A stretch of 64,000 nucleotides of DNA from a virus. Made by a program: the position numbers and the translations under genes. The notes under the pieces were generated by a model. It was not told the DNA's origin. It did no database searches and worked only from the letters and a program-made list of their open reading frames with translations. The stretch covers positions 1-64,000 of IMG/VR virus record IMGVR_UViG_3300023235_000012; one strand, 5' to 3'. Below are positions 3,916-61,585 of the stretch, piece by piece. The first letter of the stretch is position 1; each line of letters begins with the position of its first letter.

Positions 3916-4057
3916 TATTCTTCCTTATTTTACTTTGTTATTTTATAATAACACACCATCAAAACATTTCAGGTTTATTTGCCAATTTATTCTATATTAT
4001 AACATCTTTTTGTAAGAAGTCAAGAGATATTTGGTGAAGATATTTATAGAATAAAAA

Positions 4058-4312
4058 ATGGGAAAGCAGAAAACAACTGAAGAATTTATCGAATTAGCTC
4101 GTGTTCGACAATGGGAATCAATATCAATATCAGAAAACTGTCTATAAAAGACAAGAATTCCACGGAGATTTCTGGCATGGAAATCCCAGAGTGTTCGATA
4201 AAGATAAAATTCATCCAATAAAAGGAGTCACTTTTGGAGAGATATATGAAGCATCATGTGCTAAAGATCAAAAATCTTAGAAAAAGGATTTAATCTTGTT
4301 GTGAAGTAGGAG
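4058..4312 (+). pseudogene. decayed homing endonuclease (DUF723-like repeat plus Vsr-like nuclease)
   Basis: MGKQKTTEEFIELAR / frameshift / GNQYQYQKTVYK..EFHGDFWHGNP / frameshift / ILEKGFNLVVK*E. Confidence 0.65.
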
Positions 4313-4979
4313 ACGTAAGAATATTCCATTGCCAGTTTCGAGTCCAATGTTCGTCGGTTTGGACATGCTTGGCTCGGACAAATTTGGCAACATTCTGTGA
4401 GAAGTCGTTAGCTGGAAAAGAATCGGCTGTTCGCATTACAAAACCTTCTTTTTCTGGTCCAAATGCTGAATGTTTCTTTCTCTCTTCAATAAAGAACTCA
4501 GTTATGTCCTTAATTTTTGAAAACGAGCCCTTGAATATCACTGGAACCGTAGGAAGATCGTAGTGTTTTGCGTACGATTCAACACCATCCCAGGAACAAA
4601 AAATATCATCTACTTGTTCAACCGAAATTCTAGCTGCGAATAAATAAAAAGTTTCATCCATAGGAATGGTGTAAGAAATACTATGGCGTGCTGCAATGTC
4701 CTCTCCGAAAAGAGTCAACCATTCAGTGTCACGATCAACCTTCCATGCGTGATTCTTTCGGACCATTGCCATCCAACCATCGTGACTAGGCCTCAACGTA
4801 GAGCGAGCATAAACCTCTCCGCGATAAAGAGCAGTGTTCCCACCGTCGATTTTTTCGGTTACTACGACTTCTTTATCTAAGAAGAATTCTGGATCTTGAT
4901 GATAGGAATCATCTCGATGCACCGTTTCTGACCAAGGCCAATGCGGAGTTTTAGGATATCTAGATGGTCCTTGTAGCAT
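4290..4979 (-). CDS. ATP-dependent RNA ligase family protein (Rnl2-like adenylyltransferase domain)
   Basis: YPKTPH, TEKIDGGN (motif I), FGE, EGFVMR, AKFVR. Confidence 0.88.
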   Translation of the reverse strand: MLQGPSRYPKTPHWPWSETVHRDDSYHQDPEFFLDKEVVVTEKIDGGNTALYRGEVYARSTLRPSHDGWMAMVRKNHAWKVDRDTEWLTLFGEDIAARHSISYTIPMDETFYLFAARISVEQVDDIFCSWDGVESYAKHYDLPTVPVIFKGSFSKIKDITEFFIEERKKHSAFGPEKEGFVMRTADSFPANDFSQNVAKFVRAKHVQTDEHWTRNWQWNILTSPTSQQD

Positions 4980-6496: not shown

Positions 6497-7810
6497 TCAT
6501 TTTTCGGAAACCTCCCAACGGACATCGTTCATCAATTTACGAACACGATCAATCTTGGATCCAGTCGTGGTTTGCTTGATCAGATAATTTCGAACAACTT
6601 CAAATGCATCCTTACCATCGTACAAAGCAAACATCAGATTCTGGATTTCTGGTTCTAATGCATCGTTGTTCTTAACGAAATCCAGAGCAAACATCTTCTT
6701 GCGTTCGTGTTCACCATTTTCGAACATTTCAAAGTTCTGTTCGTCTAAAGCAAAATCTGCACGATTATATTCGCTCATCAACTTACGACCTAAATCGAAG
6801 CACGCTTCGTTCAATTCTTTCTGGAACGTGTCGAGTCGATCTCGTTGATCTTCCATTAAAATCGCCTTCAGGTCATCGGCCTTGTCTTCAAGAACAATGC
6901 GCCAAACATCTTTCTCCTGCTGAAGGTGCGAAACAGCCTTATGCAATGAAAGATAGATGTCAGCCTTCACCTTCAGCATGTGACCATCTTCAAATCGAAT
7001 CACATAACCTTCGATTTCTTTATCTTCTCGAGCTTCCTCGATAAATTTTTCCATGGTTTCTATCGTGCCAGCGTATTGTCGAACTACTTCTACATCTAAT
7101 GCTTCACCGACACGCAAAAGAGTTTCGTGGGGCTCGTATTCACCAGTCTGATTGTCGCGGATTGCTAATAGGACCAAACGATCCTTTGGATGGTCAACTA
7201 CTATTCGATTCTTGCGTGAACAAAACTCAAAGATTGGAGTCTTCGCAATTGCAATAATTAGCTTACAAAATTCTTCGTAACCATTGTAACCGTCTTCTTC
7301 GTCTTGCTTTTCAACAAAACTATAGACTAAACTAGCTACATCAGTTGCACCCATTTTGGTGTGCCACTCAATTTCACCATTCCGTAGGAAAGGAGTGATC
7401 ATGCTGCCGTCGAGCTTTTCGAGGATCACGTGATTTTTGTCCCAGTCAATCTTCTTGAACTCCGTCTCCCGACGTTCGCCAAGATTAAAAAATTTGTGGA
7501 ACTTTCGAGCAGCGACCGTACCGTCTGGATAAAAGGTCAAACCGCGAAGTTCACGTAATATCTCAGAAAAATTTGCTTCACACGATTGAATCATCGCATT
7601 ACCGGTTTCTGAATCAACTCCTTCGATATCAAAAACCACTAAGCCCGTATCCGGGAACGTAGTAGGCATATTCACCAGATAATTGAACACAATAAAGCCG
7701 TCGCGCTGAGCTTCAATGAATTCGGTCTTACCGTCATTCAAAGAAGCATGCCAATCGATAGCATCGCGAACCTGCTGTATATTTGTAATCTCTGGAAATT
7801 CGTATTTCAT
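6497..7810 (-). CDS. rnlA: RNA ligase 1 (T4 RnlA family)
   Basis: ELRGLTF, KFHKFFN, EKLDGSMI, FEFCS, EGYVI, KVK motifs. Confidence 0.92.
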   Translation of the reverse strand: MKYEFPEITNIQQVRDAIDWHASLNDGKTEFIEAQRDGFIVFNYLVNMPTTFPDTGLVVFDIEGVDSETGNAMIQSCEANFSEILRELRGLTFYPDGTVAARKFHKFFNLGERRETEFKKIDWDKNHVILEKLDGSMITPFLRNGEIEWHTKMGATDVASLVYSFVEKQDEEDGYNGYEEFCKLIIAIAKTPIFEFCSRKNRIVVDHPKDRLVLLAIRDNQTGEYEPHETLLRVGEALDVEVVRQYAGTIETMEKFIEEAREDKEIEGYVIRFEDGHMLKVKADIYLSLHKAVSHLQQEKDVWRIVLEDKADDLKAILMEDQRDRLDTFQKELNEACFDLGRKLMSEYNRADFALDEQNFEMFENGEHERKKMFALDFVKNNDALEPEIQNLMFALYDGKDAFEVVRNYLIKQTTTGSKIDRVRKLMNDVRWEVSEK

Positions 7811-9122: not shown

Positions 9123-9914
9123 TTAAATCTCCACCAAAAGGTTAGGATCAAACCCGGGATTGATTTCTCCGGCTGGTAGATCCGGACAAGCCGGATAACC
9201 ACGTGGATTAGCAACAACCCGAACGTCACCTAGGTTATAATCACTTGAGTGATGAATATGCCCATGAAACCAAAGATTAGGATTTAGATCCATTGCAAAG
9301 TATTCGTATCTACTCGCGTAGCACGAATTCAACTCTTCACCTGCATAGATATCAGGTACACTCTCTTCGCTTGGAGCGTGATGAGTCACCACTACCGTCT
9401 TTTCATCCTGCTTTCCATCCAAAGCTTCCTTCAAGAAAAACTTCGCCATTAGGTTTTCGCTCACCAGATCCGCCGGTTTTAGCTTTCCAGGACGTTCTCC
9501 CGACTTTCCATAGTTGATTCTCCGATAATCATTCATACTGGATAGGGCCTGAATCTGCGCAAGTGGAGCTTTACCGTAAAGATCATAATCGGTCCACAGC
9601 GTAGTCCCAACGAAAAGGACGTCGTCAATCTTCACTGAATCGTTCTGCAGAAAATGAACATGAGTTCCTTCTGTTTCGGCACGAAGCGTGTCGTACAATT
9701 TTGGAATCTTCCATTTGTTCCCGTAGGCTTCATGATTGCCGGCGATAATAACAACCGGCACATCAAAGGTTCGAAGAGCCCATTGGACTCCCTGTCGACC
9801 TACGCCGATATCACCTGCCAAGACGACCACGTCCGTTCCTTTGGGTGTCTTATAAGGCAGATTCCCATTTATGAATTCAATATGAAGATCACTGGTTGCA
9901 TGTATTTTCATCAT
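9123..9914 (-). CDS. calcineurin-like metallophosphoesterase
   Basis: SDLH, AGDI, GNHE, THH, HGHIH motifs. Confidence 0.92.
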   Translation of the reverse strand: MMKIHATSDLHIEFINGNLPYKTPKGTDVVVLAGDIGVGRQGVQWALRTFDVPVVIIAGNHEAYGNKWKIPKLYDTLRAETEGTHVHFLQNDSVKIDDVLFVGTTLWTDYDLYGKAPLAQIQALSSMNDYRRINYGKSGERPGKLKPADLVSENLMAKFFLKEALDGKQDEKTVVVTHHAPSEESVPDIYAGEELNSCYASRYEYFAMDLNPNLWFHGHIHHSSDYNLGDVRVVANPRGYPACPDLPAGEINPGFDPNLLVEI

Positions 9915-10735: not shown

Positions 10736-10764
10736 ATTATAGTAAGAAACTTGTAGATTGTCAA
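10736..10764 (-). promoter_or_regulatory. sigma70-like early promoter
   Basis: Consensus TTGACA-N17-TATAAT on minus. Confidence 0.75.
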
Positions 10765-11057
10765 GAACTCTTTGCTAAAATCATCTGAATTTGATCTTTA
10801 TATTGCTGGATATATTTGGCTAGATAAGCCATGTGATGAGCAGCAGAAAGTTTTGATTCAGCTTGGAATCTATTTTTCTCAAACTGCTGTTCCATCACGT
10901 TAATTATTACTGAAGCATTTTCCTTATGTTTTTTTCGAAGGTTTTTAGTAACTTCAACTTCTTCCACGGTATTCCATGTTCCGTTTTCAAGCTTACGAAA
11001 ATGTGTGATAGAGATATAGCATCTCTTCTTCTGTGATTTTTCTGCTTGATTTTTCAT
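10761..11057 (-). CDS. hypothetical protein
   Basis: 98-aa ORF, TAATG-coupled to the clamp loader gene. Confidence 0.65.
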   Translation of the reverse strand: MKNQAEKSQKKRCYISITHFRKLENGTWNTVEEVEVTKNLRKKHKENASVIINVMEQQFEKNRFQAESKLSAAHHMAYLAKYIQQYKDQIQMILAKSS

Positions 11058-11992
11058 TACAATTCACCTTTTAACATTGCGAGAGAATCAAGCGTCGCTG
11101 CAAGATTGATCTCTGGATCTGCTATTATTGCATGATTTAATAACCCATCTCGGATTATTATTGTAGCCTTAACCTTTCCCATTTCTTCCTCTGCCCAAAG
11201 ATCAAGATTTCGATACATAAATCTAAAAAACTCTTCAAACTCGGAATCTTGAATATGAGAACAAATCAATTCGCGACCTTTCAAAATTCGGCCGTCTTTA
11301 AACAATTCAATTGCCTCAAGCATATAATCACTATTAGACTCTTCACCTGAAGCAGACAGCAGCTTTCCGCCTTGGCTGTTTTCTTGCAAGAAATTTATCA
11401 TCTTCCTCAAATCGGGATAAGCCGCTCGGATGTAGCTGTCCAAGTCTTCAATCTCAAAATCAATCTGTTCGTCAACAAGGATTTGTGCTGCTCGAAGTTG
11501 AAACTCTTCAGTGTCCAGTCGATCACAATGCACTTCAGTAAGCCTTGAACGGATTGGAGCGATGATCTTATTTGGATTGTTGCTCGTCAACACAAAACGA
11601 GCGGCATTAGCATAATCTTCCATAATTCGTTTGAGCATTGGTTGAGCTGTTGCGTTGATTTGTTCTGCTTCTTCCAACAATACGACTTTGAAATCACCAA
11701 AGCCAATCGTCTGCACAAAATTCAAAACCTTGGTTCGAATCATGTCTACATTGCGATCTTCTGATGCATTGACATAGAGGATGTCACCTTTCTCAACCTC
11801 AAGTTCGTTCATCAGAACGTTGACAATTGAACTTTTCCCTGTACCGGCCGGACCGTGGAACAGAATATGGGGAATATTTTTTTCAGCTATCCATCCTTCA
11901 ATTGTCTTGCGTTGGCGTTGATCTTTGAAGACATAGTCTTGCATATTAGCTGGGCGATATTTTTCTGTCCAGAGGAATTCTTCTTTTTTCAT
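11057..11992 (-). CDS. sliding clamp loader AAA+ subunit (T4 gp44/RFC-like)
   Basis: WTEKYRP, GPAGTGKS, NASE, IRSR. Confidence 0.95.
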   Translation of the reverse strand: MKKEEFLWTEKYRPANMQDYVFKDQRQRKTIEGWIAEKNIPHILFHGPAGTGKSSIVNVLMNELEVEKGDILYVNASEDRNVDMIRTKVLNFVQTIGFGDFKVVLLEEAEQINATAQPMLKRIMEDYANAARFVLTSNNPNKIIAPIRSRLTEVHCDRLDTEEFQLRAAQILVDEQIDFEIEDLDSYIRAAYPDLRKMINFLQENSQGGKLLSASGEESNSDYMLEAIELFKDGRILKGRELICSHIQDSEFEEFFRFMYRNLDLWAEEEMGKVKATIIIRDGLLNHAIIADPEINLAATLDSLAMLKGEL

Positions 11993-12629: not shown

Positions 12630-12812
12630 TTAATAACGTTTCTTTGGTGCGTCATTAAAATTCACATTCCCAGTTTGCGATTTCATAAAATCTTTTCCTT
12701 TTACTCAAATCTGACCGTCAAATGTAATTTCCGGATGATCTATAGGAATTAATTTTTCTCCCAAACTGAAATAATGAGAAGAACCATCAGCGATGAACTG
12801 TTTTAAGAGCAT
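12630..12812 (-). pseudogene. remnant resembling the tail-protein N-terminal module, with in-frame TGA
   Basis: TAATG-coupled to GroES gene: MLLKQFIADG...FDGQI[TGA 12705-12707]VKGKDF..VNFNDAP. Confidence 0.35.
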
Positions 12813-13435
12813 TAATTAAAAGAATTGGAGCCATATCTTTTCAAGTGATCGGGTTTTTCTTCTAAGACGCCAAGCACTCCTCTCCGAACACTTTTCTCTT
12901 CGATAATTTGCATATCAGCTGTGCTTCCATACTTCGTTGTTAGTGTGATGATATGGCTCCAGTTCCCATGTTCCAATAACACCCATTGACCAGGACTCAA
13001 TTCATCTTCCCACATTTTACCAACCTGCCAAATCTGAGCCCAACGTGGACGAATTCCACGTTCTTTCATGTGATCATCAGTGATGATAATACCATTGCGG
13101 GTTTTATACTCACCCTTTTCAAGATTAGTAACATAAAGACCAGTATCTGGCACCTTAAAGAAACCTTCGGATTTTTCTGGACGAACACCAAGAACATGCT
13201 CTTCTTTTACCACATGGTATTTTTCATCGTTGATAGTGACTTCTTCACCTGCAGCAAATTGATAAAGAATACTATCGGTTTCTGATACCGTCAATTCTTC
13301 CATATTACCACTCGCAACAACGTCACCTTCCACGGCTTGGTTTGGATTGAAATTGACAAGCAAAATACCAGACGCTGTCCGGTCCGGTAAGTCTTTAGGT
13401 TTAATTAAAAGGTTTCCTTTTAAGGGTCGAAACAT
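12812..13435 (-). CDS. groES: tandem two-domain GroES/Cpn10 co-chaperonin
   Basis: Domain 1 RPLKGNLLIK..TASGILL..GDVVASG; domain 2 KTRNGIII..RPRWAQIWQVG..PGQWVL. Confidence 0.85.
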   Translation of the reverse strand: MFRPLKGNLLIKPKDLPDRTASGILLVNFNPNQAVEGDVVASGNMEELTVSETDSILYQFAAGEEVTINDEKYHVVKEEHVLGVRPEKSEGFFKVPDTGLYVTNLEKGEYKTRNGIIITDDHMKERGIRPRWAQIWQVGKMWEDELSPGQWVLLEHGNWSHIITLTTKYGSTADMQIIEEKSVRRGVLGVLEEKPDHLKRYGSNSFN

Positions 13436-13850: not shown

Positions 13851-14363
13851 CTATCTTAAAAACTCGCTTATCGGTATTCCGTACGCATTACTATTTATTT
13901 GATGGATACCGATCAAAAATAAACAAAAGCTAGCAACAGAAGATCCTCGACCTACACCATACACGATCTTATTTTCTTCCATAAAGTCAACCAGATAAAT
14001 CAAAAAACGCAAAAATACTTCCATGTCGCGTTCTTTAAACATTATTAATTCTTGTGCTACTCTTTCGAGTTCTTCGTCTGTCTCACATCTGGATGCAAAG
14101 AATTCCTCTAAATTTAATTCTTTGTATTTTTCTGGCATTTCCCAATTAGATTGATTTTCTTCGTGATTAATATCTAAATTGGATTTCAATTTCTTTTCTT
14201 TGAAATACTCTGCCCAGTGATTGAACAACAAGACATCATCATGTTCGCCGAAATCGGCTTGGTCATTTGGATTTCCACCAGCGTACAGAAAATCAATCAG
14301 ACCTTGTTCAGAATAATGAACTAAACCTTGATCATCAATCGTTCTGTTTTCAAGTTCAATCAT
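13851..14363 (-). CDS. DnaE (Pol III alpha)-like N-terminal palm fragment
   Basis: ERVAQEL...YLVDF...IVYGVGRGSSVASFCLFLIGI...EFLR matches the DnaE GxGRGS region; ends just before PDxDxD. Confidence 0.85.
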   Translation of the reverse strand: MIELENRTIDDQGLVHYSEQGLIDFLYAGGNPNDQADFGEHDDVLLFNHWAEYFKEKKLKSNLDINHEENQSNWEMPEKYKELNLEEFFASRCETDEELERVAQELIMFKERDMEVFLRFLIYLVDFMEENKIVYGVGRGSSVASFCLFLIGIHQINSNAYGIPISEFLR

Positions 14364-14924: not shown

Positions 14925-15377
14925 TTACACCTCGAGGTAAATGTTTTTGCCTTCATAGTTCGGATCCGATTCTCGATCTCGCACTTCCGAACGTTCGATA
15001 GAAAATTTTCCACCTGGATAGCGTGACTCCAGCTTATGGATGTTATCTTCGATGACTTTCGTTAAAGGATGATCTAGTTGCTTCATCAACTTTGAAAGAT
15101 ACCACAAAACGTCACCGCATTCGTCCTTCATTGCTCTGATAGAATTAACATCCCATTGCTTACCGTGGAATTTAATCTTCTTCCAAAGATCTGCGATTTC
15201 TCCTGCTTCACCAGCAAGACCGGTGATTGCTGTATCTGTTGCTGCGAAATTTAGACCAATCTTTTCAATTTCGCGAATACGCTTTATGAAAGATTCGCTA
15301 TCGGTGCTATCTGGACTGGTGACCTGGTCTACGAAACCTTGATACTGTCCAAAATATTCATCTACTTCTTTTTCCAT
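14925..15377 (-). CDS. mazG: MazG-like NTP pyrophosphohydrolase
   Basis: GLAGEAGEIADLWKK, DECGDVLWY, NIHKLESRYP. Confidence 0.9.
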   Translation of the reverse strand: MEKEVDEYFGQYQGFVDQVTSPDSTDSESFIKRIREIEKIGLNFAATDTAITGLAGEAGEIADLWKKIKFHGKQWDVNSIRAMKDECGDVLWYLSKLMKQLDHPLTKVIEDNIHKLESRYPGGKFSIERSEVRDRESDPNYEGKNIYLEV

Positions 15378-15886
15378 TTTAACTCCACTAATTTTTTTTG
15401 GGCATATTCTTCATCGCAGAGTTTTCTACTCGAAAACTCACTGTTCTTCTCCACTTTCTTAAGTATCAGTTCTTTTGGAATCCAGCTTATATCCGGAATT
15501 TCTTCTTCGTATTCAACTTCGAGCATGACAAATTCCGTTTCGCCGTATTGGAAAATATCCAAATCCCAAATGATTCCAGTCGTTTGTTGATTAGTATATC
15601 TTGTCTTTGAAAGACTCTGGATACTATATTGCATTAATCTTCCAAATTCTTCTTTTGTTATTTCTCTTTCAAATTCAATTGCGCTGTTTTTTCCGTGTGG
15701 AATCTTATAAGTGAAAGTGAATTTGAAACTTCCATCAATCATGCTCTCCCTAGATCGAATTCTAGTTCTTCCATCTAAATAGAATTGTTCTATTCTTGAT
15801 GACCACCAACCCATCTTCTGAGAAAATTCAGTTAGGACCTGAACCGAATTTGGAATCAAAACTATTTTCGTCTCTTGTTCGATCAT
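15362..15886 (-). CDS. CYTH (triphosphate tunnel) domain protein
   Basis: EQETK (ExExK), IEQFYL, RIR, EFEREI, KTRY, LEVE. Confidence 0.85.
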   Translation of the reverse strand: MIEQETKIVLIPNSVQVLTEFSQKMGWWSSRIEQFYLDGRTRIRSRESMIDGSFKFTFTYKIPHGKNSAIEFEREITKEEFGRLMQYSIQSLSKTRYTNQQTTGIIWDLDIFQYGETEFVMLEVEYEEEIPDISWIPKELILKKVEKNSEFSSRKLCDEEYAQKKLVELKWKKK

Positions 15887-15910
15887 ATTGTTAATATAAC
15901 AAAGAAAAGA

Positions 15911-18049
15911 TTAAGAGTCAATATTGGTTCCAATAATAAAAGACCTGCTTCGAGAAAATCCTGAAGAACTGTTAGCTGAGATAATGAAGCTCCAATATTT
16001 TTCTTCGTCAGTATCAATCACTCCAGCGATGATACCGTTAGAAGCAAGTAGCAAGCCCGTAGGTAAGGTTCCACTTGACAAGCTATAGTCTCTAGGTAAA
16101 TCATTTGGATCATTTGCCTGGACTGCGATACTCACAACATCAGTGTCATCAAAACTATCTAACAAACCAGGTAAAGTCATCCAAATCGGTGCATTGGAAG
16201 CCAGCTCTTCTTGATCCTCCTGTGTCTCTAACAATGAATGGAAATGAACCGAGAAATCTTGAGGAAGATCGTCATCGACACTTGTCTCAAAATTGATGGA
16301 CGTAAATTTTATTCGCTCACCCTTGACATTACTTCCGAAAACTTCATCGGCTAAGAGATCAGCGTAAAGCTGTTCTCCCTCGCCCGGCTGCATGAAAACA
16401 ATGGTAATAGCGGGCAAGAAGTCAAGTACGCTGGTGCTATCGTTTTGTATCTGTTCGCTGGTCATCCATAGAGGAAGGGTATCAGTCCCTCCTGAAATTC
16501 CCGGAAAGGTATTTGTGAACAGATCGCGGAAGGTGTTTAAAGAAGATGGATAGATCGTCTTCTGCGTCTGTGGAGTAACGAAGCTAGTCAATGGATCGGT
16601 GACGAGCTCTACAATCTCTCTGTAAAGAACCTCGTAAAGAACGAAACCGTCCGTATCTCTAGCGTAAGCTAGTTTCAGGTCACCTACAATAATTTCCATG
16701 GGAATCATTAGCTTTTCATATCTGCTTTTGAATTCTGCTGGCCCTGCTGTCTTGAGATTTTCTTGAACAAGAATACGAGGGAACTCTTGTACTCCAAACC
16801 GTTCATCATAAGGCCGGAATAACTTTTCCCTGTCTATTGTTTCTCCTTCGATTATTTCTCGATACTCATCAATAAATTGGTAGGGGATCTGAAAATAAGC
16901 TCTAATTGCTCTTTCTTCATATCCGGCTTCAATTTCAATATTGAATTGCCTGCTAGCTTGGACAAAATCATTCTCGGCCAAGACTGTGAAGGTGTAAGTC
17001 CCAGAAGATTGAAACTGAACGTCATCATATATTGTTGCTTCTGATGGATGAAGCTGAAGACCCTGAGGAAGAGAACCTAAAGAGATAGAAAATCGGATAG
17101 GATAATTACTGTCTGCGTCAAGAGAAAGAAGACTATTTTCACCTACCTTCAACGTTCCAATGTTTCCAGCTTCTGTCACCCAGGTGATTGAAGCGTCGAA
17201 GTTTTCATTTGTAGTGATAGAAAAATTTCTTATTCTGATATTAGAACCATCAGAGACTAGTACGGTGAAAGGCCACGAACCTTGGACGACCGTCGAGCAA
17301 ACGCCTTCGATTGCACCCGTACTAGTATTTAGCGTCAATCCATCAGGAAGAGAACCCGCCGTCAACGTGAAGGTCAACGCATCCCCGTCAGGATCGAAGG
17401 CGTTCAAGACGATGCTCGATGTTTCGCCGTTGTTTATCAATCCAGCAATGCCGGATGAAGTCAACCAAATCGGGGATCGGTTTCCTGTGGCGTTCTGCAC
17501 GAGGATCTCAAAATCTTTATCAATGGTCGTTCCTTCACTTGATTCAGCGCGCATTGTGAAAGAATAAAGAGTATCTACATCGATTTCGCCTACTCTTCCT
17601 TTAAGGAGACCGGTGGCGTTGATAGATACACCTGGAGGAAGAGTCCCTGCAATTTTGGTGAAGGTAGAGATTCCACCTGGATCAGCTAATTGAAACTGAT
17701 GCTCTACCGTATCGAGTTCGACGATGGTAGCTAGCCTGGTATTAGTCAACCAAAGAGGAGCAACTTGCGAAACTAGAATTCCGAAGCCTCGTTCAATCTG
17801 TCCATCGACATTGGTAACTCTGACGGTGAAAAAATATTCTTTTTCAGTTGGAATTGCCGCAACAGTTCCAGTGACTTGATAAGAGGTATTTGATATTTGA
17901 TTGATTACTGTTCCATCTGGAATTTCACCAGAAATAATCTCTACTGTGGCGGTTACGTCACTTGTGAACTCAAAAGACGTCAGAAGAGTATCGCCTTCTA
18001 AGACCTCTGCTATTCTTCCTGATGGTGTTACCCAAACTGGTGATGTCAT
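15911..18049 (-). CDS. Ig-like (He_PIG) repeat virion/baseplate protein
   Basis: Repeated GxLPxGLxL...GxIxG modules and PxWxT motifs; TAAATA at 18074-18079. Confidence 0.8.
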   Translation of the reverse strand: MTSPVWVTPSGRIAEVLEGDTLLTSFEFTSDVTATVEIISGEIPDGTVINQISNTSYQVTGTVAAIPTEKEYFFTVRVTNVDGQIERGFGILVSQVAPLWLTNTRLATIVELDTVEHQFQLADPGGISTFTKIAGTLPPGVSINATGLLKGRVGEIDVDTLYSFTMRAESSEGTTIDKDFEILVQNATGNRSPIWLTSSGIAGLINNGETSSIVLNAFDPDGDALTFTLTAGSLPDGLTLNTSTGAIEGVCSTVVQGSWPFTVLVSDGSNIRIRNFSITTNENFDASITWVTEAGNIGTLKVGENSLLSLDADSNYPIRFSISLGSLPQGLQLHPSEATIYDDVQFQSSGTYTFTVLAENDFVQASRQFNIEIEAGYEERAIRAYFQIPYQFIDEYREIIEGETIDREKLFRPYDERFGVQEFPRILVQENLKTAGPAEFKSRYEKLMIPMEIIVGDLKLAYARDTDGFVLYEVLYREIVELVTDPLTSFVTPQTQKTIYPSSLNTFRDLFTNTFPGISGGTDTLPLWMTSEQIQNDSTSVLDFLPAITIVFMQPGEGEQLYADLLADEVFGSNVKGERIKFTSINFETSVDDDLPQDFSVHFHSLLETQEDQEELASNAPIWMTLPGLLDSFDDTDVVSIAVQANDPNDLPRDYSLSSGTLPTGLLLASNGIIAGVIDTDEEKYWSFIISANSSSGFSRSRSFIIGTNIDS

Positions 18050-33023: not shown

Positions 33024-34204
33024 TAGGCGAGCTCCGTCCCTCCTTTTCTCAACAAATATTTCGGACTGACGAATTTCAATTGAACTCGGCCGATAGTGTC
33101 ATCTTGACGCTCTTCTTTAGGGCGGATGACGATACCTTCACGAATGTTCGAACCACTAAAATCTTTTCCATCTCGGATTTCTGTCATCTTCTCCATAGAA
33201 AATGGTCCGCTATACAGAATAGGAACTGTCTCAATTTTCAAGCTATTAGCAAGGAAATGTAAATCAATTGGATCTAGATAACGTCCTTGGCCCGGCTTTC
33301 CAACATAAACATCAAACAATCTAAATTCAGGCATTGAGGTTCCGTAAACTAAATCCTGAACACCTCTACCGAAAACTTCTCCGAGCAGATAGATCGGCTC
33401 CGCTCGATCTGAAAGGTTAATCAGACGTTCAAGAAGATCGAAACCTTGTTCATCTCTTGAACGTTCAAGAACCTGAAGGTAAAGATTCTTTGTCATGTTT
33501 TCTTCATCCATTTCGAACGCTAAACCGCGAGCCGATAGTCCTTTACTGGAAACCACCTTGACTGCACTTGAATCTTCGTTCGGATAGAAACCATAACAGC
33601 ACCAGGTTCCGTGAAGCTTTTCTGTTACACTGACACATTCATCTTCTTTGAAGACATTGGGATAACGTTGAATGTTTTCAATGTCATATTTCAACGTCTT
33701 TCCAGATGCATTCCAAACCTTCCCAGACATTGAGGCAGGGATTGGAGGCTCATATTTGGTGACACCAAGCAAGTCAGAAACATCAACTCCAATTGCTTCT
33801 TCAAAGGCATTTTTCCCCTCAGCAATAATATATCTCTGATCAGATCCCTGAACCGTAACAAAATGATAATCATCTTCTGTTTCAATGATTACAGGCATCA
33901 AAATTCCCTGTGAAAATATTCCCCTTAATTTGATGGCCTTTACCCGATCACCTCTGGATCCAGCGAGACCACCTTTGCCTTTTTCTTCGTCCCAGAAACC
34001 CATTTTTTTCAAGAGCCATTCAGGTACTAGAGCCTGTTCTGGAATATAAACGACCAGATCATCTTTCTGATAGCGCCATGATCCATCTTCTTTCTTATTG
34101 GCGATACAATTATACCCACCAATCTTGACAATGGTCAAGCGATCTGCATCGGGATGTTCAACGACATCATCGATCCGAACCACATTAACTTCAAATTCAG
34201 CCAT
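33023..34204 (-). CDS. RNA ligase, DRB0094/Rnl5 family
   Basis: N-terminal OB (HPDADRL, LRGIFSQG), TEKLHGT, GEVFG, REGIVIRP, QLKFVS. Confidence 0.92.
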   Translation of the reverse strand: MAEFEVNVVRIDDVVEHPDADRLTIVKIGGYNCIANKKEDGSWRYQKDDLVVYIPEQALVPEWLLKKMGFWDEEKGKGGLAGSRGDRVKAIKLRGIFSQGILMPVIIETEDDYHFVTVQGSDQRYIIAEGKNAFEEAIGVDVSDLLGVTKYEPPIPASMSGKVWNASGKTLKYDIENIQRYPNVFKEDECVSVTEKLHGTWCCYGFYPNEDSSAVKVVSSKGLSARGLAFEMDEENMTKNLYLQVLERSRDEQGFDLLERLINLSDRAEPIYLLGEVFGRGVQDLVYGTSMPEFRLFDVYVGKPGQGRYLDPIDLHFLANSLKIETVPILYSGPFSMEKMTEIRDGKDFSGSNIREGIVIRPKEERQDDTIGRVQLKFVSPKYLLRKGGTELA

Positions 34205-41307: not shown

Positions 41308-41537
41308 GTTCCTATTTCTTCTTTCTCAAAGTTCATAATTGCTAGTTTCATCTGAAGAGTGTCTTCGACGCCATCGTCATCAACTTCAAGTGACCATTTT
41401 TCGATGATTTCGAGTGGATCCCATCCTCGCTTTTTTAGCAGGCGCATCGCTTGAATCGTTTTATAATAGCTCTGATTTTCTGCCATTTCTATTCTCCTTA
41501 ACTTATAATATAAAGTAGAACAAGGAGATTGTCAATA

Positions 41538-56938: not shown

Positions 56939-57730
56939 TTAAACTCGATAAAGAACTTGATCGAATGTACCTAAGTTTGCGACATCAGGATCATAGGCGA
57001 ATCTAACCCATTGAGCGTTGACATTGAAGTCAAGATTTTGAATGTCTGACTCAGAGACGTAATCGATAAAATCAGTGGCTCCACCGACATTAACGTTAAA
57101 CCACTCAGAGTTTGCGGCAGGTGCAGTGTTATCCAGTGAGGCTTGAACCCAAAATCGACCAGTGAAATTCGTCAAATAAGCTACTAAGCTATGCAATCCA
57201 TCATGACGACCTTCTTGTGCGTCTCCTGGATAAGCACTAGAGTAATAAACTCCACTGCTCAAACTCCAAACTGTTGCGTCACTGATTGTTGCGGCTTTAA
57301 AGGAAGGCATTGCATTATCCAACAACCAAACTTCTGCGATAGCACTGTAATCGGTGTCACCATAAAGATTGTATTCATCTTGGTTTTCATCGAGGATCGT
57401 TACAACCATTCTGTAGGTTCCTGGTCTCCACTCTGCAGTTTCACCTTCTAGCATGGTGAGTTCCCATTGTCCTTTAGCTGCATCTATTTCATCGAGCTCT
57501 CTTTGAAGAACCAATTCTTCGGTTTCGTTTGAAACCAAGTAAGCAGTGAAAACTTTTCCGGCGGCGGGAATAACTTTTTTGTCACTGTTCTTTATCGTGA
57601 CATAGATTCTAGAAGCCACACCTTGATAGATCTTAAATTTTCGTTGTGTCATTGGTAGGTTCTCCAACAGTCCTGCCGTCGAATACAATAGTTCCAAGTT
57701 TTGTCTATATGAATAAAAATCAATCTTCAT
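56939..57730 (-). CDS. putative virion structural protein
   Basis: Beta-rich; TAAATA at 57771-57776; probable start MKIDF. Confidence 0.6.
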   Translation of the reverse strand: MKIDFYSYRQNLELLYSTAGLLENLPMTQRKFKIYQGVASRIYVTIKNSDKKVIPAAGKVFTAYLVSNETEELVLQRELDEIDAAKGQWELTMLEGETAEWRPGTYRMVVTILDENQDEYNLYGDTDYSAIAEVWLLDNAMPSFKAATISDATVWSLSSGVYYSSAYPGDAQEGRHDGLHSLVAYLTNFTGRFWVQASLDNTAPAANSEWFNVNVGGATDFIDYVSESDIQNLDFNVNAQWVRFAYDPDVANLGTFDQVLYRV

Positions 57731-57792
57731 TTGTACCCGTTTTTTCAGCATTAAATAACTTTGTACTTAATATTTATTAGAAAGAAAGAAAG

Positions 57793-58182
57793 ATGACAAA
57801 CGAATTTAACAAATTACATGATCGATTTCCGTTCCTCTCTTTAGGAGTTTTTAAGACCACCGACTATCATGTCGGTATCGTCTTAAATCAGACCCGACAG
57901 TTCATTGGTATGTATCTCTTAGAAGATTTGAAAACTACTGCTGAGAAAAAGCATTTCTTGGAACTTGGTGAAATATGGTGGTGGGAATCAAATCGAATGC
58001 TTCCAATCTCTATTTTCCTAAAACAAGAATTCAAACCGTTTAGATATGTTTTAAGGAATTTTGCAAATAAGGATTTCAAAATTCTTCAAGGGCCTGTCAC
58101 CAGTTTACAGAATGTAGTACAGAAGAGAATCAAACGAAGAACGATAAACCTTGAAGCAAAGAACAGGAAGAAAAGAATCTAA
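57793..58182 (+). CDS. hypothetical phage protein
   Basis: FPFLS, WWWESNRMLPI; TAAATA at 57752-57757. Confidence 0.75.
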   Translation: MTNEFNKLHDRFPFLSLGVFKTTDYHVGIVLNQTRQFIGMYLLEDLKTTAEKKHFLELGEIWWWESNRMLPISIFLKQEFKPFRYVLRNFANKDFKILQGPVTSLQNVVQKRIKRRTINLEAKNRKKRI

Positions 58183-58432
58183 GAGATCATCGCTCTGATC
58201 GTCTTTATTTCTTCTTCGTTTCCCTGTTCTTTTGTGGCTTTATAAGCTGGATAATTTTCCTCAAGATTTTTCTCATATTCTTCCAGTGTCATATGAGAGT
58301 ATTGTGGTTAAGGTAAAAATCGATCCCACCACATTATTCATCGACTGAATATTTATAATTTCTATTGTTATTTCAGAAGACATCACTTTTCGAATTACAT
58401 CTTTTAATCCATCTTCAGAAAGAGTGTCGATG

Positions 58433-59014
58433 CTAGCCATTTAATTCTTCCATCAAAAGATTCAGCTGGACGATAATAACCAATGCGTACCCAAAACTAT
58501 GACTCATTTTAAACTGATACCGTTCTTCGCCAACATCCTTTTGCCAAATTTCTGCACGGATCTTCTCCCAAGATTCACCGATCAAGTGTTTCTTCGCTGG
58601 ACGAATTATCGCGATAGTCATCGCCAATTCGCTAAGAGAACAAGGTTTCATCTGCTTCACCACTTCATAATGATCATGTAATTGAAACAAGGTCTCAACT
58701 ACTTCTTTATGATCCAATAGACTCCAATCAGGATCCGTTTTGGTTAGACTACGTAGGTGATCGGGATCTCGGACGGCCTTGTAAACACCGTTATGAAGCA
58801 AGTCAACCTTGACGTAACCAAGCTGTTCTGATCTTTTATAGTCGAGTGAGCACCATCCAGTGATATGATCTTTTGGAACCTTCTGGAAATATACTCCTGA
58901 CTTGTGCTTTTCTATATTGGGTAATCTGTGTATTGACGCCGGTACATGAGGAAGCTTAGAAAGAACCTCTTCTCTGTTTTTTAAATCAATATCTACGTCA
59001 GGAATATCACGCAT
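58433..59014 (-). CDS. DnaE (Pol III alpha)-like catalytic palm/fingers fragment
   Basis: Starts MRDIPDVDID; KHKSGVY, KVDLL, LFQL, AIIRP, FKMSHSFGYA. Confidence 0.88.
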   Translation of the reverse strand: MRDIPDVDIDLKNREEVLSKLPHVPASIHRLPNIEKHKSGVYFQKVPKDHITGWCSLDYKRSEQLGYVKVDLLHNGVYKAVRDPDHLRSLTKTDPDWSLLDHKEVVETLFQLHDHYEVVKQMKPCSLSELAMTIAIIRPAKKHLIGESWEKIRAEIWQKDVGEERYQFKMSHSFGYALVIIVQLNLLMEELNG

Positions 59015-59327
59015 TATTAATCATGATTTGCTGTTGATACCTTTTCAATTTTTCTAGTTCGATTGATAATCGAGAAAACACTGAATGTAAGCGTTCAATT
59101 CGTCGACGCATTTCTTGATTTTCTTTTTCGAGTGCATTAACATGTTCAACTGATGGAACGTTAATTGTTTTTCCATCTACGTTGATTGCGACCGTCTTTT
59201 TGTTCGGAGATTGAACCTCAACTTTAGGGATAGATTCTGTTTTTTTTCTAGGCTTCTTACGAGAAGTAGAGTACATCGACAAATCTTCTTCTTTAATCTT
59301 CTTCTTAATTGCTAAGCCTTCGTTCAT
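59007..59327 (-). CDS. hypothetical coiled-coil protein
   Basis: 106-aa ORF, AGGA SD, TAAATA at 59349-59354. Confidence 0.65.
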   Translation of the reverse strand: MNEGLAIKKKIKEEDLSMYSTSRKKPRKKTESIPKVEVQSPNKKTVAINVDGKTINVPSVEHVNALEKENQEMRRRIERLHSVFSRLSIELEKLKRYQQQIMINNA

Positions 59328-59366
59328 ATTTCTATCCTCTGTTTACCTTATTTAAGCTGCTTAATG

Positions 59367-60032
59367 TTATATGCCAGCCTCTCTTAATTCTTTTTTCAAA
59401 TGCGGTACTTTCGGGTCGGATTTGACTCTCATTCTCCAATATAATGGATTGATAAGTTCTTTAATTGAATCCAATTCTTCTTGATCTAATTTTCCTAGAA
59501 GGTTTTCAGTTTGTGAGCACAAAATTACAAACCAAGGTGAAATTCTTCCTGTTCTAAGCCAAAGGCATAATCGATGTCCGGTTAGATTTAAACATACCTC
59601 TTGAAGTTCTAGTTCGTGCTCTATAGAATATTCTTGTAAGGTCTCTATAGATCTACTTACCGCAATATCAGAGTCCTCTGTCATTATTTTTTCATGAGCC
59701 CATTTGAAATAATGATTCTCGCTTGTCCATTTCCTAAACGGAGCGCCCGAACGCATCAAATAAGAAAAATATTCGTTTATATTCAATGGATTAATAGTCA
59801 TAAAAAACTTCGCTAGTGTCTCGTATGCTCTATATTGTTTTGATTCAAGAAACACGGTCTGAAGGTCTTTTTTGCTTCTTATTCGATGGAATTTTTTGAA
59901 TTCTGAGAACAATTCAAAGGCCATCATTCCTATCTGGTCGTGTCGTTGATTCCATCTTCTTTTCGGCTCACATATATGCTTTTCGAATGCTTCTTCTCTT
60001 TTGTATTCTTTCTTGCAGAAATCACACTTCAT
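59367..60032 (-). CDS. hypothetical protein with N-terminal zinc finger
   Basis: CDFC..H.C; GRISPW. Confidence 0.7.
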   Translation of the reverse strand: MKCDFCKKEYKREEAFEKHICEPKRRWNQRHDQIGMMAFELFSEFKKFHRIRSKKDLQTVFLESKQYRAYETLAKFFMTINPLNINEYFSYLMRSGAPFRKWTSENHYFKWAHEKIMTEDSDIAVSRSIETLQEYSIEHELELQEVCLNLTGHRLCLWLRTGRISPWFVILCSQTENLLGKLDQEELDSIKELINPLYWRMRVKSDPKVPHLKKELREAGI

Positions 60033-60179
60033 ATCAATCTGCCGGCATCCGCATTACTTTGGGAAGATTAAAAGATGTTATTTTTCCCGTCTCATCACAT
60101 TTTGGACAATCTCTAATAGTTGCGCATGAACCGTTAGGATATGGACCTACCGTTCTTTCTCCTTTACACCTATCACACC

Positions 60180-60662
60180 TCATTTGGTTTCCTTCTTGTA
60201 TTGTTTAACCAATTCTTTCTCTTCTTTTTCTGGCATGGCGTAATCAATCAACATCCTTCTAAATTGATCAGGTGTCATATTCTTCTTAATGATCCGAAGT
60301 TCAGTTTCATTCACTCCTTGAAAATATTCTTTCAAGACAGCGTCAATCTTTGATTTCACTCCACGAGAAGGTCCTTTGATCCATTTATGTTGTTGTCTCT
60401 TACCAACACCACAAGAAGCCATCAAACCCCAGATCAGTTCATCATGATCTTTTAGATCCCAAAGGTTTTTGTTTACTAACTCATTCGTCGTCTGAAGATA
60501 GAACGAATGCAGGCCTCCTTGATCTGGTGCTCCACTCATCCATCTCATAATTACGAAAGAAGCAAAAGCCTTCTTTTCATCATCATTTAATTCGGCATAG
60601 AAATCGTAGTTTCTATGATCAATATTGTCTAATGTTCTGAATATATCTAATTTAACTGCCAT
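60180..60662 (-). CDS. putative clamp loader small subunit (gp62-like)
   Basis: Size and F.IMRWMS..N..H..L..KWIK pattern; tentative. Confidence 0.45.
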   Translation of the reverse strand: MAVKLDIFRTLDNIDHRNYDFYAELNDDEKKAFASFVIMRWMSGAPDQGGLHSFYLQTTNELVNKNLWDLKDHDELIWGLMASCGVGKRQQHKWIKGPSRGVKSKIDAVLKEYFQGVNETELRIIKKNMTPDQFRRMLIDYAMPEKEEKELVKQYKKETK

Positions 60663-60769
60663 GATGTTAATATAAATTATTCTAGGTTGTTTGTCAATTA
60701 TCTTTTGATAGACTAAATAAGAATAAGGCTTCGATGCCTTTAGTTATAAACTCTAATAGGAGAAAGACG

Positions 60770-61585
60770 ATGGGACGCCCTTTACATTCAAAATTAGGCG
60801 GGAACGTCACAGGAAGTGGAAATCAACTTCGTGTTATGGCACATCTTGATGCTGTAATTGGTCCAGAACCTTGCTGGATTAACAAACAAACGGGATCAAC
60901 TCGTTTCAATGTCAGTTCAGTAGCTGGTGGTGCAACGCCGACAAGAACCGGTACAATTTATCTTGTTGGCAATGATGAACCAGCTCTAAACGAAGGTTAC
61001 ATCAAAGTTCTACCGGTTGCAATTGACGACGGTGGTGGTGCATTGTTTACCGCCACAATGCTAGTAGTGGGTGCAACAATCGTTGATGGTGGAACCGGAT
61101 ATGCCGGAACCGATACCTTAACTGTTGTTGGTGGAACGGCTGGAACAGCCGCGACATTGACAGTTGATACGGTTAGCACTGGAGTAATTACTGTAATTAG
61201 TATAGCTGACGGACAGGATTATACTGTCCTTCCAACTAATCCGGTTTCTGTGACCGGTGGTACTGGAAATGATGACGCAACATTCAATTTGACATACGGC
61301 ATTGAAAGTGTAGCAGTTGATCAAGGTGGAGATGATTGGAGTACTGCACCAACTCTTCAAGTTATTGGTAACGGTTCATCGGGTGCAGTTTCTGCTACAT
61401 TAACAAGTGACGTGATCACTTCGGTTGCAGTTGATACTATCGGAACCGGCTACACTAGCATTCCTAGAATTGCTACAGCAGTTGCTGGAACGAGATTTGC
61501 TACGAAACTTCACGATAATATTGTGAAGACCACGGATGGAACAATTTACAGTTATCCGGGTGAAGCAGTATTTGATCAAGACTAA
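60770..61585 (+). CDS. virion structural protein (Gly/Thr-rich beta repeats)
   Basis: MGRPL start after AGGAG; GGTGY/GTGYTSIP repeats; TAAATA at 60714-60719. Confidence 0.75.
   Translation: MGRPLHSKLGGNVTGSGNQLRVMAHLDAVIGPEPCWINKQTGSTRFNVSSVAGGATPTRTGTIYLVGNDEPALNEGYIKVLPVAIDDGGGALFTATMLVVGATIVDGGTGYAGTDTLTVVGGTAGTAATLTVDTVSTGVITVISIADGQDYTVLPTNPVSVTGGTGNDDATFNLTYGIESVAVDQGGDDWSTAPTLQVIGNGSSGAVSATLTSDVITSVAVDTIGTGYTSIPRIATAVAGTRFATKLHDNIVKTTDGTIYSYPGEAVFDQD

Follow-up and report, generated by a model that had tools for sequence, protein, structure and literature searches.

C-family polymerases are known as large multi-domain bacterial replicases. The locus described here raises the question of what a 193-aa open reading frame (ORF) holding the catalytic aspartates of such an enzyme does in a phage that already owns a complete family B polymerase. 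The ORF lies in a 64,000-nucleotide stretch of viral DNA (the window, taken at its full length) that covers positions 1 to 64,000 of IMG/VR record IMGVR_UViG_3300023235_000012. The whole virus record is 137 kb long with an estimated completeness of 37%, and the DNA sequencing runs containing the stretch are salt-lake metagenomes. Two distant ORFs of the window are at issue:

58433..59014, minus strand: C-terminal half of a split minimal DNA polymerase III alpha (Pol III alpha), 193 aa, ATG start, from the ORF list
13851..14363, minus strand: N-terminal half, 170 aa, from the ORF list, PF07733 and phrog_11127

The reading that we favour, at a probability of roughly 0.65, is that the 193-aa ORF represents the C-terminal metal-binding half of a Rak2-like split Pol III alpha-like heterodimer, which would work as a distributive accessory polymerase or nucleotidyltransferase and not as the replicase.

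Two halves of a reduced Pol III alpha

The 193-aa ORF matches the PHROGs family phrog_11778 ('DNA polymerase') with an E-value of 2.9e-69, its residues 6-190 aligning to profile positions 8-194 of 197, and by sequence it is a full-length member of this C-terminal-half family. The N terminus reads MRDIPDVDIDL, in which PDVDID occupies residues 5-10; KVDLL follows at residues 69-73 and FKMSHSFGY at residues 168-176. The ORF thereby holds the palm strands with D6/D8(/D10) and K69/D71, a reduced index finger (R138-P139-x-K141) and an FK(K/M)SHS helix with H172. A word-indexed protein search retrieved homologues in 568 clusters (90% identity) of 106-338 aa, nearly all of the same length, with the nearest cluster at most 66% identical to the window copy. 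An exhaustive profile search of 1.84 billion representatives returned 570 proteins at E<=0.001.

The 170-aa partner passes the PF07733 threshold (36.5 bits, cut-off 23.9) and is the sole PF07733 match in the virus record, 44 kb away from the 193-aa ORF. It also matches phrog_11127 of PHROGs (E 8.9e-48). The protein is laid out as a phage-specific N-terminal region of ~85 aa followed by a palm segment with the triphosphate-binding loop GVGRGSS, and terminates in ...GVGRGSSVASFCLFLIGIHQINSNAYGIPISEFLR, where the end at EFLR corresponds to ERFLN of DnaE (residues 389-393). Its homologues in the word-indexed search form 2246 clusters (90% identity), also of nearly uniform length; among 48 partner homologues GVGRGSS is invariant or almost so, and the EFL[RK] end is present in 48/48. 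Together the two halves sum to 363 aa.

Single-sequence searches of the PDB were uninformative, returning nothing useful for the 193-aa half (best CysN/CysC, E 0.61) and DnaE only at E 1.6 for the partner, and profiles were therefore needed. A profile from an alignment of 49 homologues of the 193-aa half (A1) matched seven distinct PDB sequences at E<=10, every one a DnaE. Three stretches of the half are collinear with E. coli DnaE, at residues 401-421 (DFDVDF), 596-641 (…ALFRPG) and 752-767 (GFNKSHSAAYAL). Comparison with E. coli dnaE by hhalign placed residues 49-141 on DnaE 536-642, with KVDLL on KFDFL, and placed residues 100-170 of the partner on DnaE 323-394 (E 1.2e-6, probability 91%). 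The three catalytic aspartates of the E. coli enzyme (D401, D403 and D555) have counterparts in the 193-aa ORF, D6/D8 aligning to DnaE 401-403 and K69-x-D71 to the KFD strand within 536-560, and the GxGRGS loop is found in the partner and not in the 193-aa ORF. Residue 170 of the window's protein aligns with the Lys of E. coli FNKSHS.

The AF2 models of the 193-aa half and of the partner have predicted local distance difference test (pLDDT) scores of 92 and 88, respectively. In Foldseek searches against the PDB, the top 11 matches of the 193-aa half are all Pol III alpha (best E 3.3e-3, probability 0.98) and the top 16 of the partner are all DnaE or PolC (best E 0.04), with query template-modelling (TM) scores of 0.3-0.45 for both halves. 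Bacterial DnaE gave the best structural matches (E. coli, PDB 2hnh and 5fkv; Thermus aquaticus, PDB 2hpi, 3e0d and 4iqj). PolC of Firmicutes (PDB 3f2b), which carries an inserted proofreading exonuclease and a permuted OB domain, shares the C-family palm; it matches less well than DnaE and stands further down both Foldseek lists.

DnaE and the split pair share, in the same order, a Pol-beta-like palm, the PDxDxD and KxD strands, the GxGRGS loop, the RP(G/A) index-finger motif and the F(N/K)KSHS helix. However, DnaE is about 1160 aa in one chain, whereas the pair has 363 aa in two chains and is devoid of the PHP domain, the thumb, the middle, ring and little fingers, the HhH/beta-binding domain, the OB fold and the tau-binding tail. 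With the domains named as in the published E. coli structure, the pair retains the palm, the index finger and, of the ring finger, the first helix. The thumb (about 115 residues between DnaE 421 and 536) and some 110 residues between 642 and 752 are missing, and nothing in either ORF corresponds to the PHP domain or to DnaE beyond ~775 (clamp-binding and OB regions). Conversely, the ~85-aa N-terminal region of the partner is not in DnaE; the model of the complex places it in the interface. No further DnaE pieces were found elsewhere in the genome, and neither PF02811 (PHP) nor PF14579 (HhH) occurs in any of the four records searched, which include the complete 378-kb genome of phage CBB and three fragments.

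The same record encodes a T4-type family B polymerase of 936 aa with exonuclease and polymerase domains (phrog_262, E 7e-193), as well as a DnaQ-like exonuclease. The absence of the PHP, thumb, clamp-binding and OB parts from the pair, taken with the complete family B polymerase of the phage, makes a distributive accessory enzyme, and not a replicase, the most likely function. Much of this had been anticipated in the first-pass annotation of the window. It had read PDVDID, KVDLL and FKMSHS.GY in the 193 aa as all three catalytic aspartate equivalents, and these motifs stand where it placed them and align to DnaE; its large internal deletions and missing clamp-binding and OB regions are the DnaE segments 421-536, 642-752 and beyond ~775. 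Its core of ~360 aa, with 13851..14363 as the other half, is borne out by the total length and by the PF07733 and phrog_11127 matches of the partner. Its proposal that the enzyme is not the replicase, to be checked by looking for a separate family B polymerase, agrees with the 936-aa protein and with the clamp loader and DnaQ-like exonuclease of the record.

Predicted assembly and natural fusions

The DnaE alignments of both halves place the break between them in the short loop ERFLN / PDFDVDF (DnaE ~393 to ~399). A C-family polymerase encoded by two distant genes is also found in cyanobacteria (e.g. Nostoc punctiforme), in which full length is restored by trans-splicing. The cyanobacterial genes are joined through inteins, and a post-translational splicing of the phage halves by a split intein would follow this precedent. 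However, there is no room for an intein, as the partner ends at EFL[RK] in 48/48 sequences and the 193-aa ORF begins at most five residues before DxD, and Pfam detects no intein or Hint domain in either half. The palm break presumably also differs from the cyanobacterial split-intein site. We regard splicing as having next to no chance of being correct, and it was ruled out on the lack of extra sequence at the break together with the lack of a Hint or intein match in Pfam. With no intein in the phage halves and a break inside the palm, assembly must be non-covalent.

Prediction of the complex with both alignments gave an interaction prediction score from aligned errors (ipSAE) of 0.87 in 3/3 runs, compared with 0.00 for the best of three controls. 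The pass mark of this procedure is met by 58/80 solved complexes and by 2/110 mismatched pairs. The predicted heterodimer has ~190 contacts, the runs agree in at least 97% of them, and the pLDDT of the partner is at least 87. The contacts with the lowest predicted error join the partner strand before GVGRGSS (residues 133-135) to residues 11-12 of the 193-aa ORF, in the strand with D8/D10, indicating a palm sheet that is predicted to form in trans and an active site that would be composite. The N-terminal region of the partner (residues 2-36 and 65-75) touches residues 43-68 of the 193-aa ORF. The modelling thus lends support to a binding of the two halves, with the reservation that the score may partly stem from likeness to solved DnaE chains.

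In the mechanism that we propose, the 193-aa protein and the 170-aa partner would be obligate subunits of one heterodimer, each contributing to a composite Pol-beta-like palm. The partner would supply a strand and the GVGRGSS loop gripping the triphosphate of the incoming nucleotide. The adjoining strands would come from the 193-aa ORF, with the catalytic D6, D8 and D71, plus K69 and the reduced finger residues R138, K141, K169 and H172. Either half alone would be inactive.

Fused single-chain forms exist in three clusters (P0298, P0391 and P0392) of 375-376 aa, which hold both halves in one frame and are 78-81% identical to each other. The linker is ~10 residues long and the junction reads …EFIKDNKEGIYNIAD(F/L)D(I/V)D. 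These rare single chains carry all motifs of the split pair, including the phage-specific N-terminal region, and are known only from contigs of 2.4-5.9 kb. In a quick maximum-likelihood tree (63 rows, midpoint-rooted) they form one clade (SH-aLRT 100) among nine stand-alone rows of 206-222 aa, and this nested position suggests that the fusion is probably secondary. The rare natural fusions provide independent support for the halves working together. As to their genomic context, a scan of viral contigs found no relative, and one metagenome scan gave a split-type locus (L008) and two bacterial dnaE loci (L009 and L010), with no fused locus.

Distribution and conservation of the split family

Searches of phage records with tblastn found the 193-aa half in 96 and the partner in 93, with equal counts in 9/10 named genera and 11 vs 10 in Klebsiella. 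Both halves occur in Rak2-like jumbo phages of Escherichia, Pseudomonas, Klebsiella, Salmonella, Erwinia, Xanthomonas, Yersinia, Agrobacterium, Serratia, Pectobacterium and others, and also in Vibrio phages. The best isolate match of the 193-aa half is in Agrobacterium phage Atu_ph07 (49% identity). In all records showing both halves they are separate genes. The distance between them is 44 kb in the window, 29-43 kb in CBB, RaK2, K64-1, Serratia BF, PA5oct and Vibrio 2.275.O, 182 kb in Atu_ph07 and 224 kb in Phosso. In the window and in the phages with 29-43 kb spacing, the C-terminal half is encoded upstream of the N-terminal one.

The family is present in at least 579 IMG/VR stretches, and the IMG/VR counts given here for the 193-aa half rest on 80 loci. 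At none of the 80 does the partner lie within 4 kb of the 193-aa half. Among five long IMG/VR fragments, two hold the partner, 44 and ~171 kb away, and three (25-60% complete) do not.

The family and its split have already been published, which the first-pass annotation did not mention. Iyer, Anantharaman, Krishnan, Burroughs and Aravind (2021, Viruses 13:63, PMC7824862) describe a minimal split Pol III alpha that accompanies a family B polymerase in jumbo phages of group 2.2 (Rak2-like). They suggest that the split enzyme may cooperate with the family B enzyme in the synthesis of one strand or in repair, and that it is a model of an ancestral form. The CBB paper calls the N-terminal half a 'truncated' Pol III alpha, the Atu_ph07 paper lists a predicted Pol III alpha subunit, and later genome papers merely list the split Pol III alpha. 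Annotations of the relatives in isolated phages vary between 'DNA polymerase', 'DNA polymerase III alpha', 'hypothetical protein' and 'putative membrane protein', in keeping with the remark of the first-pass annotation that similar fragments are annotated in other large phages. The window pair has the same two proteins as the group 2.2 enzyme (phrog_11778 and phrog_11127), with the same break point, lengths, distant genes and family B company. It differs from the published enzyme in detail, namely in its uncultured virus, in an identity of at most 66% to any database cluster and in Met170. Judged by sequence, the pair is a divergent addition to this published family, and since the family is already in print, the result from the window is mostly confirmatory.

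An intact ORF of 181-207 aa is present in 78/80 IMG/VR loci. Of the other two, one (L073) is cut by the contig end, and in one (L066, about 4001-4570) a lone in-frame stop interrupts a frame that is conserved elsewhere, possibly a sequencing error or the sole pseudogene of the 80 loci. D6, D8, K69, D71, R138, P139, K141 and H172 are invariant in 49/49 aligned homologues. Across the 78 intact IMG/VR ORFs and the window copy, 79/79 keep D6, D8, D10, R14, H37, G40, K69, D71, R138, P139, K141, Y166 and H172. The ratio of nonsynonymous to synonymous substitutions (dN/dS, Nei-Gojobori), was computed from the 79-sequence alignment for those pairs with 0.05<dS<1.5 (246 of 3081); its median is 0.16 and its range 0.02-0.53, and the closest pairs give 0.02-0.17.

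These numbers bear on the reading of both ORFs as functionless, decaying fragments of a former full-length phage DnaE. The small size of the proteins, the 'truncated' label of the CBB authors, the in-frame stop in 1/80 IMG/VR loci and the unusual M170 of the window would fit decay. However, the 568 and 2246 clusters are of conserved length, the catalytic residues are kept in 79/79 sequences at a median dN/dS of 0.16, the break point is identical in 48/48 partner sequences, and the halves co-occur across phages of Escherichia, Pseudomonas, Klebsiella, Agrobacterium and Vibrio. By its sequences the family of the 193-aa half shows no sign of decay, and we consider this explanation hardly plausible. 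Relaxed selection, which the first-pass annotation had named as the observation that would speak against a functional enzyme, was thus not what the family displayed.

Operons, replication genes and probable role

The 193-aa gene belongs to an operon on the minus strand, which is met by a convergent gene:

60669..60697, minus strand: sigma-70-type promoter-like site TTGACA-17-TATATT, 11/12 matches, 7 nt upstream of the start at 60662
60180..60662, minus strand: first gene of the operon, 160 aa, phrog_11758, homologue of CBB_284 (BLASTP E 2e-15)
60034..60183, minus strand: zinc-ribbon-like ORF, 49 aa
59367..60032, minus strand: 221-aa protein with an N-terminal C2H2-like zinc finger, phrog_11058, homologue of CBB_285 (E 1e-37)
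59007..59327, minus strand: coiled-coil-like ORF, 106 aa
58273..58440, minus strand: putative coding ORF, 55 aa, its start overlapping the stop of the 193-aa ORF by 8 nt
57793..58182, plus strand: convergent neighbour, 129 aa, phrog_11637 (E 6e-28), WWWESNRM motif

The stop of the 106-aa ORF overlaps the start of the 193-aa ORF by 8 nt (ATGCGTGA), which suggests translational coupling. The operon order of the window recurs in CBB (CBB_284-287) and in the metagenome locus L008. CBB_286, the positional counterpart of the 106-aa ORF, was detected in CBB virions; its sequence similarity to the 106-aa ORF is not significant (E 0.18). The 55-aa ORF weakly matches the N-terminal part of T4 Gp23-type major capsid proteins (PF07068, E 0.0056; phrog_138, E 0.006).

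The partner lies in a second minus-strand operon, followed by further genes for nucleic acid and nucleotide metabolism:

15893..15921, minus strand: sigma-70-type promoter-like site TTGACT-17-TATATT, TG-extended, 7 nt upstream of the start at 15886, in front of the partner's operon
15362-15886, minus strand: unannotated 174-aa protein, first gene (start 15886) of the operon with the N-terminal half
14925-15377, minus strand: MazG-like pyrophosphatase, phrog_229 (E 4e-33), in the operon of the N-terminal half
12812-13435, minus strand: GroES/Cpn10 domain (PF00166, E 3e-16) followed by a head-morphogenesis-like segment (phrog_931), 207 aa, between the N-terminal half and the clamp loader
11057..11992, minus strand: clamp-loader ATPase, 311 aa, phrog_168 (E 2.5e-68), downstream of the N-terminal half
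9123-9914, minus strand: metallophosphoesterase, phrog_1649 (E 6e-56), downstream of the clamp loader
6497-7810, minus strand: T4 RnlA-type RNA ligase, phrog_562 (E 2e-68), downstream of the clamp loader

In CBB, the N-terminal half and the clamp loader have the same arrangement (CBB_328…332), after the genes for gyrase B and topoisomerase II. The C-terminal half of CBB (CBB_287, annotated 'putative membrane protein') lies between DnaQ-like/UvsW and primase/helicase genes. The DnaB/Toprim domains encoded near the gene in CBB (PF03796 and PF13155) have no match in the 137-kb record, which says little because the record is 37% complete.

The pattern TTGACN16-19TATAWT occurs six times in the window, always on the minus strand, against 0.45 expected, and 0/100 shuffles reach six. 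The sites lie mostly just upstream of a gene start:

3996-4023, 10736-10764, 15893-15921, 34109-34138, 41507-41535 and 60669-60697, minus strand: six sigma-70-type sites

From their sequence and placement, the six are likely the host-polymerase promoters of the phage. The first-pass annotation had seen a late-type motif in the operon and taken it as a hint of late expression. The T4-type late motif TATAAATA does exist there, but its only exact copy near the gene (58350-58357, minus strand) lies 76 nt downstream of the stop of the 193-aa ORF, inside the 55-aa ORF, and owing to this downstream position it cannot drive the 193-aa ORF. The first gene of the operon stands directly behind the TTGACA-17-TATATT site, which speaks against late expression. 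A late promoter for the operon was rejected, as one-mismatch variants of the motif in the operon overlap a start codon or lie upstream of the sigma-70 site. The whole window contains two copies of TATAAATA against 2.7 expected, and ATAAATA is not enriched either (16 vs 15.5 expected). The sequence of both upstream regions points to transcription of the two halves from host-sigma-70-type promoters and not as a late operon. For the genes of the two halves, no timing at the level of single genes is reported in the main text of the PA5oct omics paper.

According to the proposed mechanism, both genes would be transcribed in operons behind host-type sigma-70 promoters, among replication genes, and the heterodimer may act at the fork or in repair, for example in short primer extension and hand-off or in gap filling. 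Templated short-patch synthesis is favoured because the DnaE finger motifs are strictly retained and the genes have a replication-gene neighbourhood. Most probably the pair works as an active accessory polymerase or nucleotidyltransferase of two subunits and not as a replicase; its catalytic activity, substrate, expression timing and biological role are what we infer from the comparisons above.

The main rival also assumes an active heterodimeric nucleotidyltransferase, which would be non-templated: it might act as a terminal transferase, process ends, make primers de novo, or synthesise a nucleotide product for use in host conflict. Many non-templated transferases have the Pol-beta-like palm fold. 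The absence of the thumb, of the middle, ring and little fingers, of the HhH/clamp-binding and OB parts, and of PF14579 and PF02811 from the complete CBB genome and the three fragments would suit such an enzyme, as would the full family B polymerase that the phage already owns. However, R138-P-x-K141 and the FKKSHS helix are collinear with the index- and ring-finger motifs of DnaE and invariant, and there is little that would make a non-templated enzyme preserve them. Both genes, moreover, lie among replication genes in the window and in CBB. A non-templated activity appears less likely, yet it keeps a real share of the probability.

The heterodimer might instead bind nucleotides as a non-catalytic regulator or scaffold of the replisome or of nucleotide metabolism. 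Its genes adjoin those for the clamp loader, the MazG-like pyrophosphatase and other nucleotide-handling proteins, and its conserved neighbours phrog_11058 and phrog_11637 are without assigned function, all of which would be compatible with a regulatory part. However, the three metal-binding aspartates, the triphosphate loop and the finger Arg, Lys and His are all strictly conserved, as catalysis requires and binding alone would not, which makes a purely binding role very improbable.

Several observations weigh against an active accessory polymerase. No report of a measured activity for any family member was found in the literature, with supplements outside the scope of that search, in line with the first-pass annotation, which could not confirm any characterisation. 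The 193-aa ORF misses the curated Pfam thresholds, having no PF07733 match and a finger-domain (PF17657) match of 13.4 bits against a cut-off of 22; the latter is also under the cut-off when searched genome-wide. Its relationship to DnaE is distant by each measure: the best whole-sequence E-value of A1 against the PDB is only 0.026, the hhalign probability is 10%, and the best Foldseek match is modest (E 3.3e-3, query TM-score ~0.3). The halves are pieces of a fold solved as one chain, and the high ipSAE may thus reflect memory of DnaE structures. The nearest relative of the window in the dN/dS set is 51% identical, so that the dN/dS describes the family and not the window's own branch, and the window copy has Met170 (FKMSHS) where 66/79 sequences have Lys (FKKSHS) and 8/79 have Arg. 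The promoter sites are consensus matches only, and no RNA runs containing 57700-60800 are listed. Finally, no DnaE element known to grip duplex DNA is present, and template-directed synthesis is therefore not assured.

A more ambitious version of the accessory-polymerase reading involves the two conserved neighbours of the 193-aa gene. The phrog_11637 gene is convergent with the 193-aa half in 79/80 IMG/VR loci, and its 3' end is at most 25 nt from the stop of the half in 69. The phrog_11058 gene lies upstream on the same strand in 44/47 IMG/VR loci whose upstream flank reaches 3 kb or more, as it does in CBB and L008. The two proteins occur only in phages and carry no annotation. Searches for their function gave only sub-threshold zinc-finger matches in Pfam; in the Atlas, the 221-aa protein matched phage clusters without a name and the 129-aa protein had no match. 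The zinc-finger protein of phrog_11058 could be a candidate accessory subunit, or the position of both neighbours may reflect stable synteny. The heterodimer might then be the core of a third, phage-specific polymerase system with partners of its own (phrog_11058 and possibly phrog_11637) replacing the lost DnaE modules, a proposal that we hold to be tentative and rather doubtful. Within the family B replisome it could, for example, extend primase-made primers and then hand them off, a task that DnaE has for PolC in Bacillus. If such a system exists, it would be the smallest known C-family polymerase, either a model of the ancestral form or an extreme reduction.

That a two-chain core of 363 aa is conserved under strong purifying selection shows how small a part of the enzyme suffices for whatever reaction is performed, and the split pair offers a tractable system for what the palm and the index finger alone can do. 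The family is widespread beside a complete family B replisome, and its role is a directly testable question in jumbo-phage replication. In L008 (10570-11392, plus strand), three ORFs that do not occur in the window come after the polymerase half, of 141, 134 and 119 aa; by eye, the first looks P-loop kinase-like and the third ferredoxin-like.

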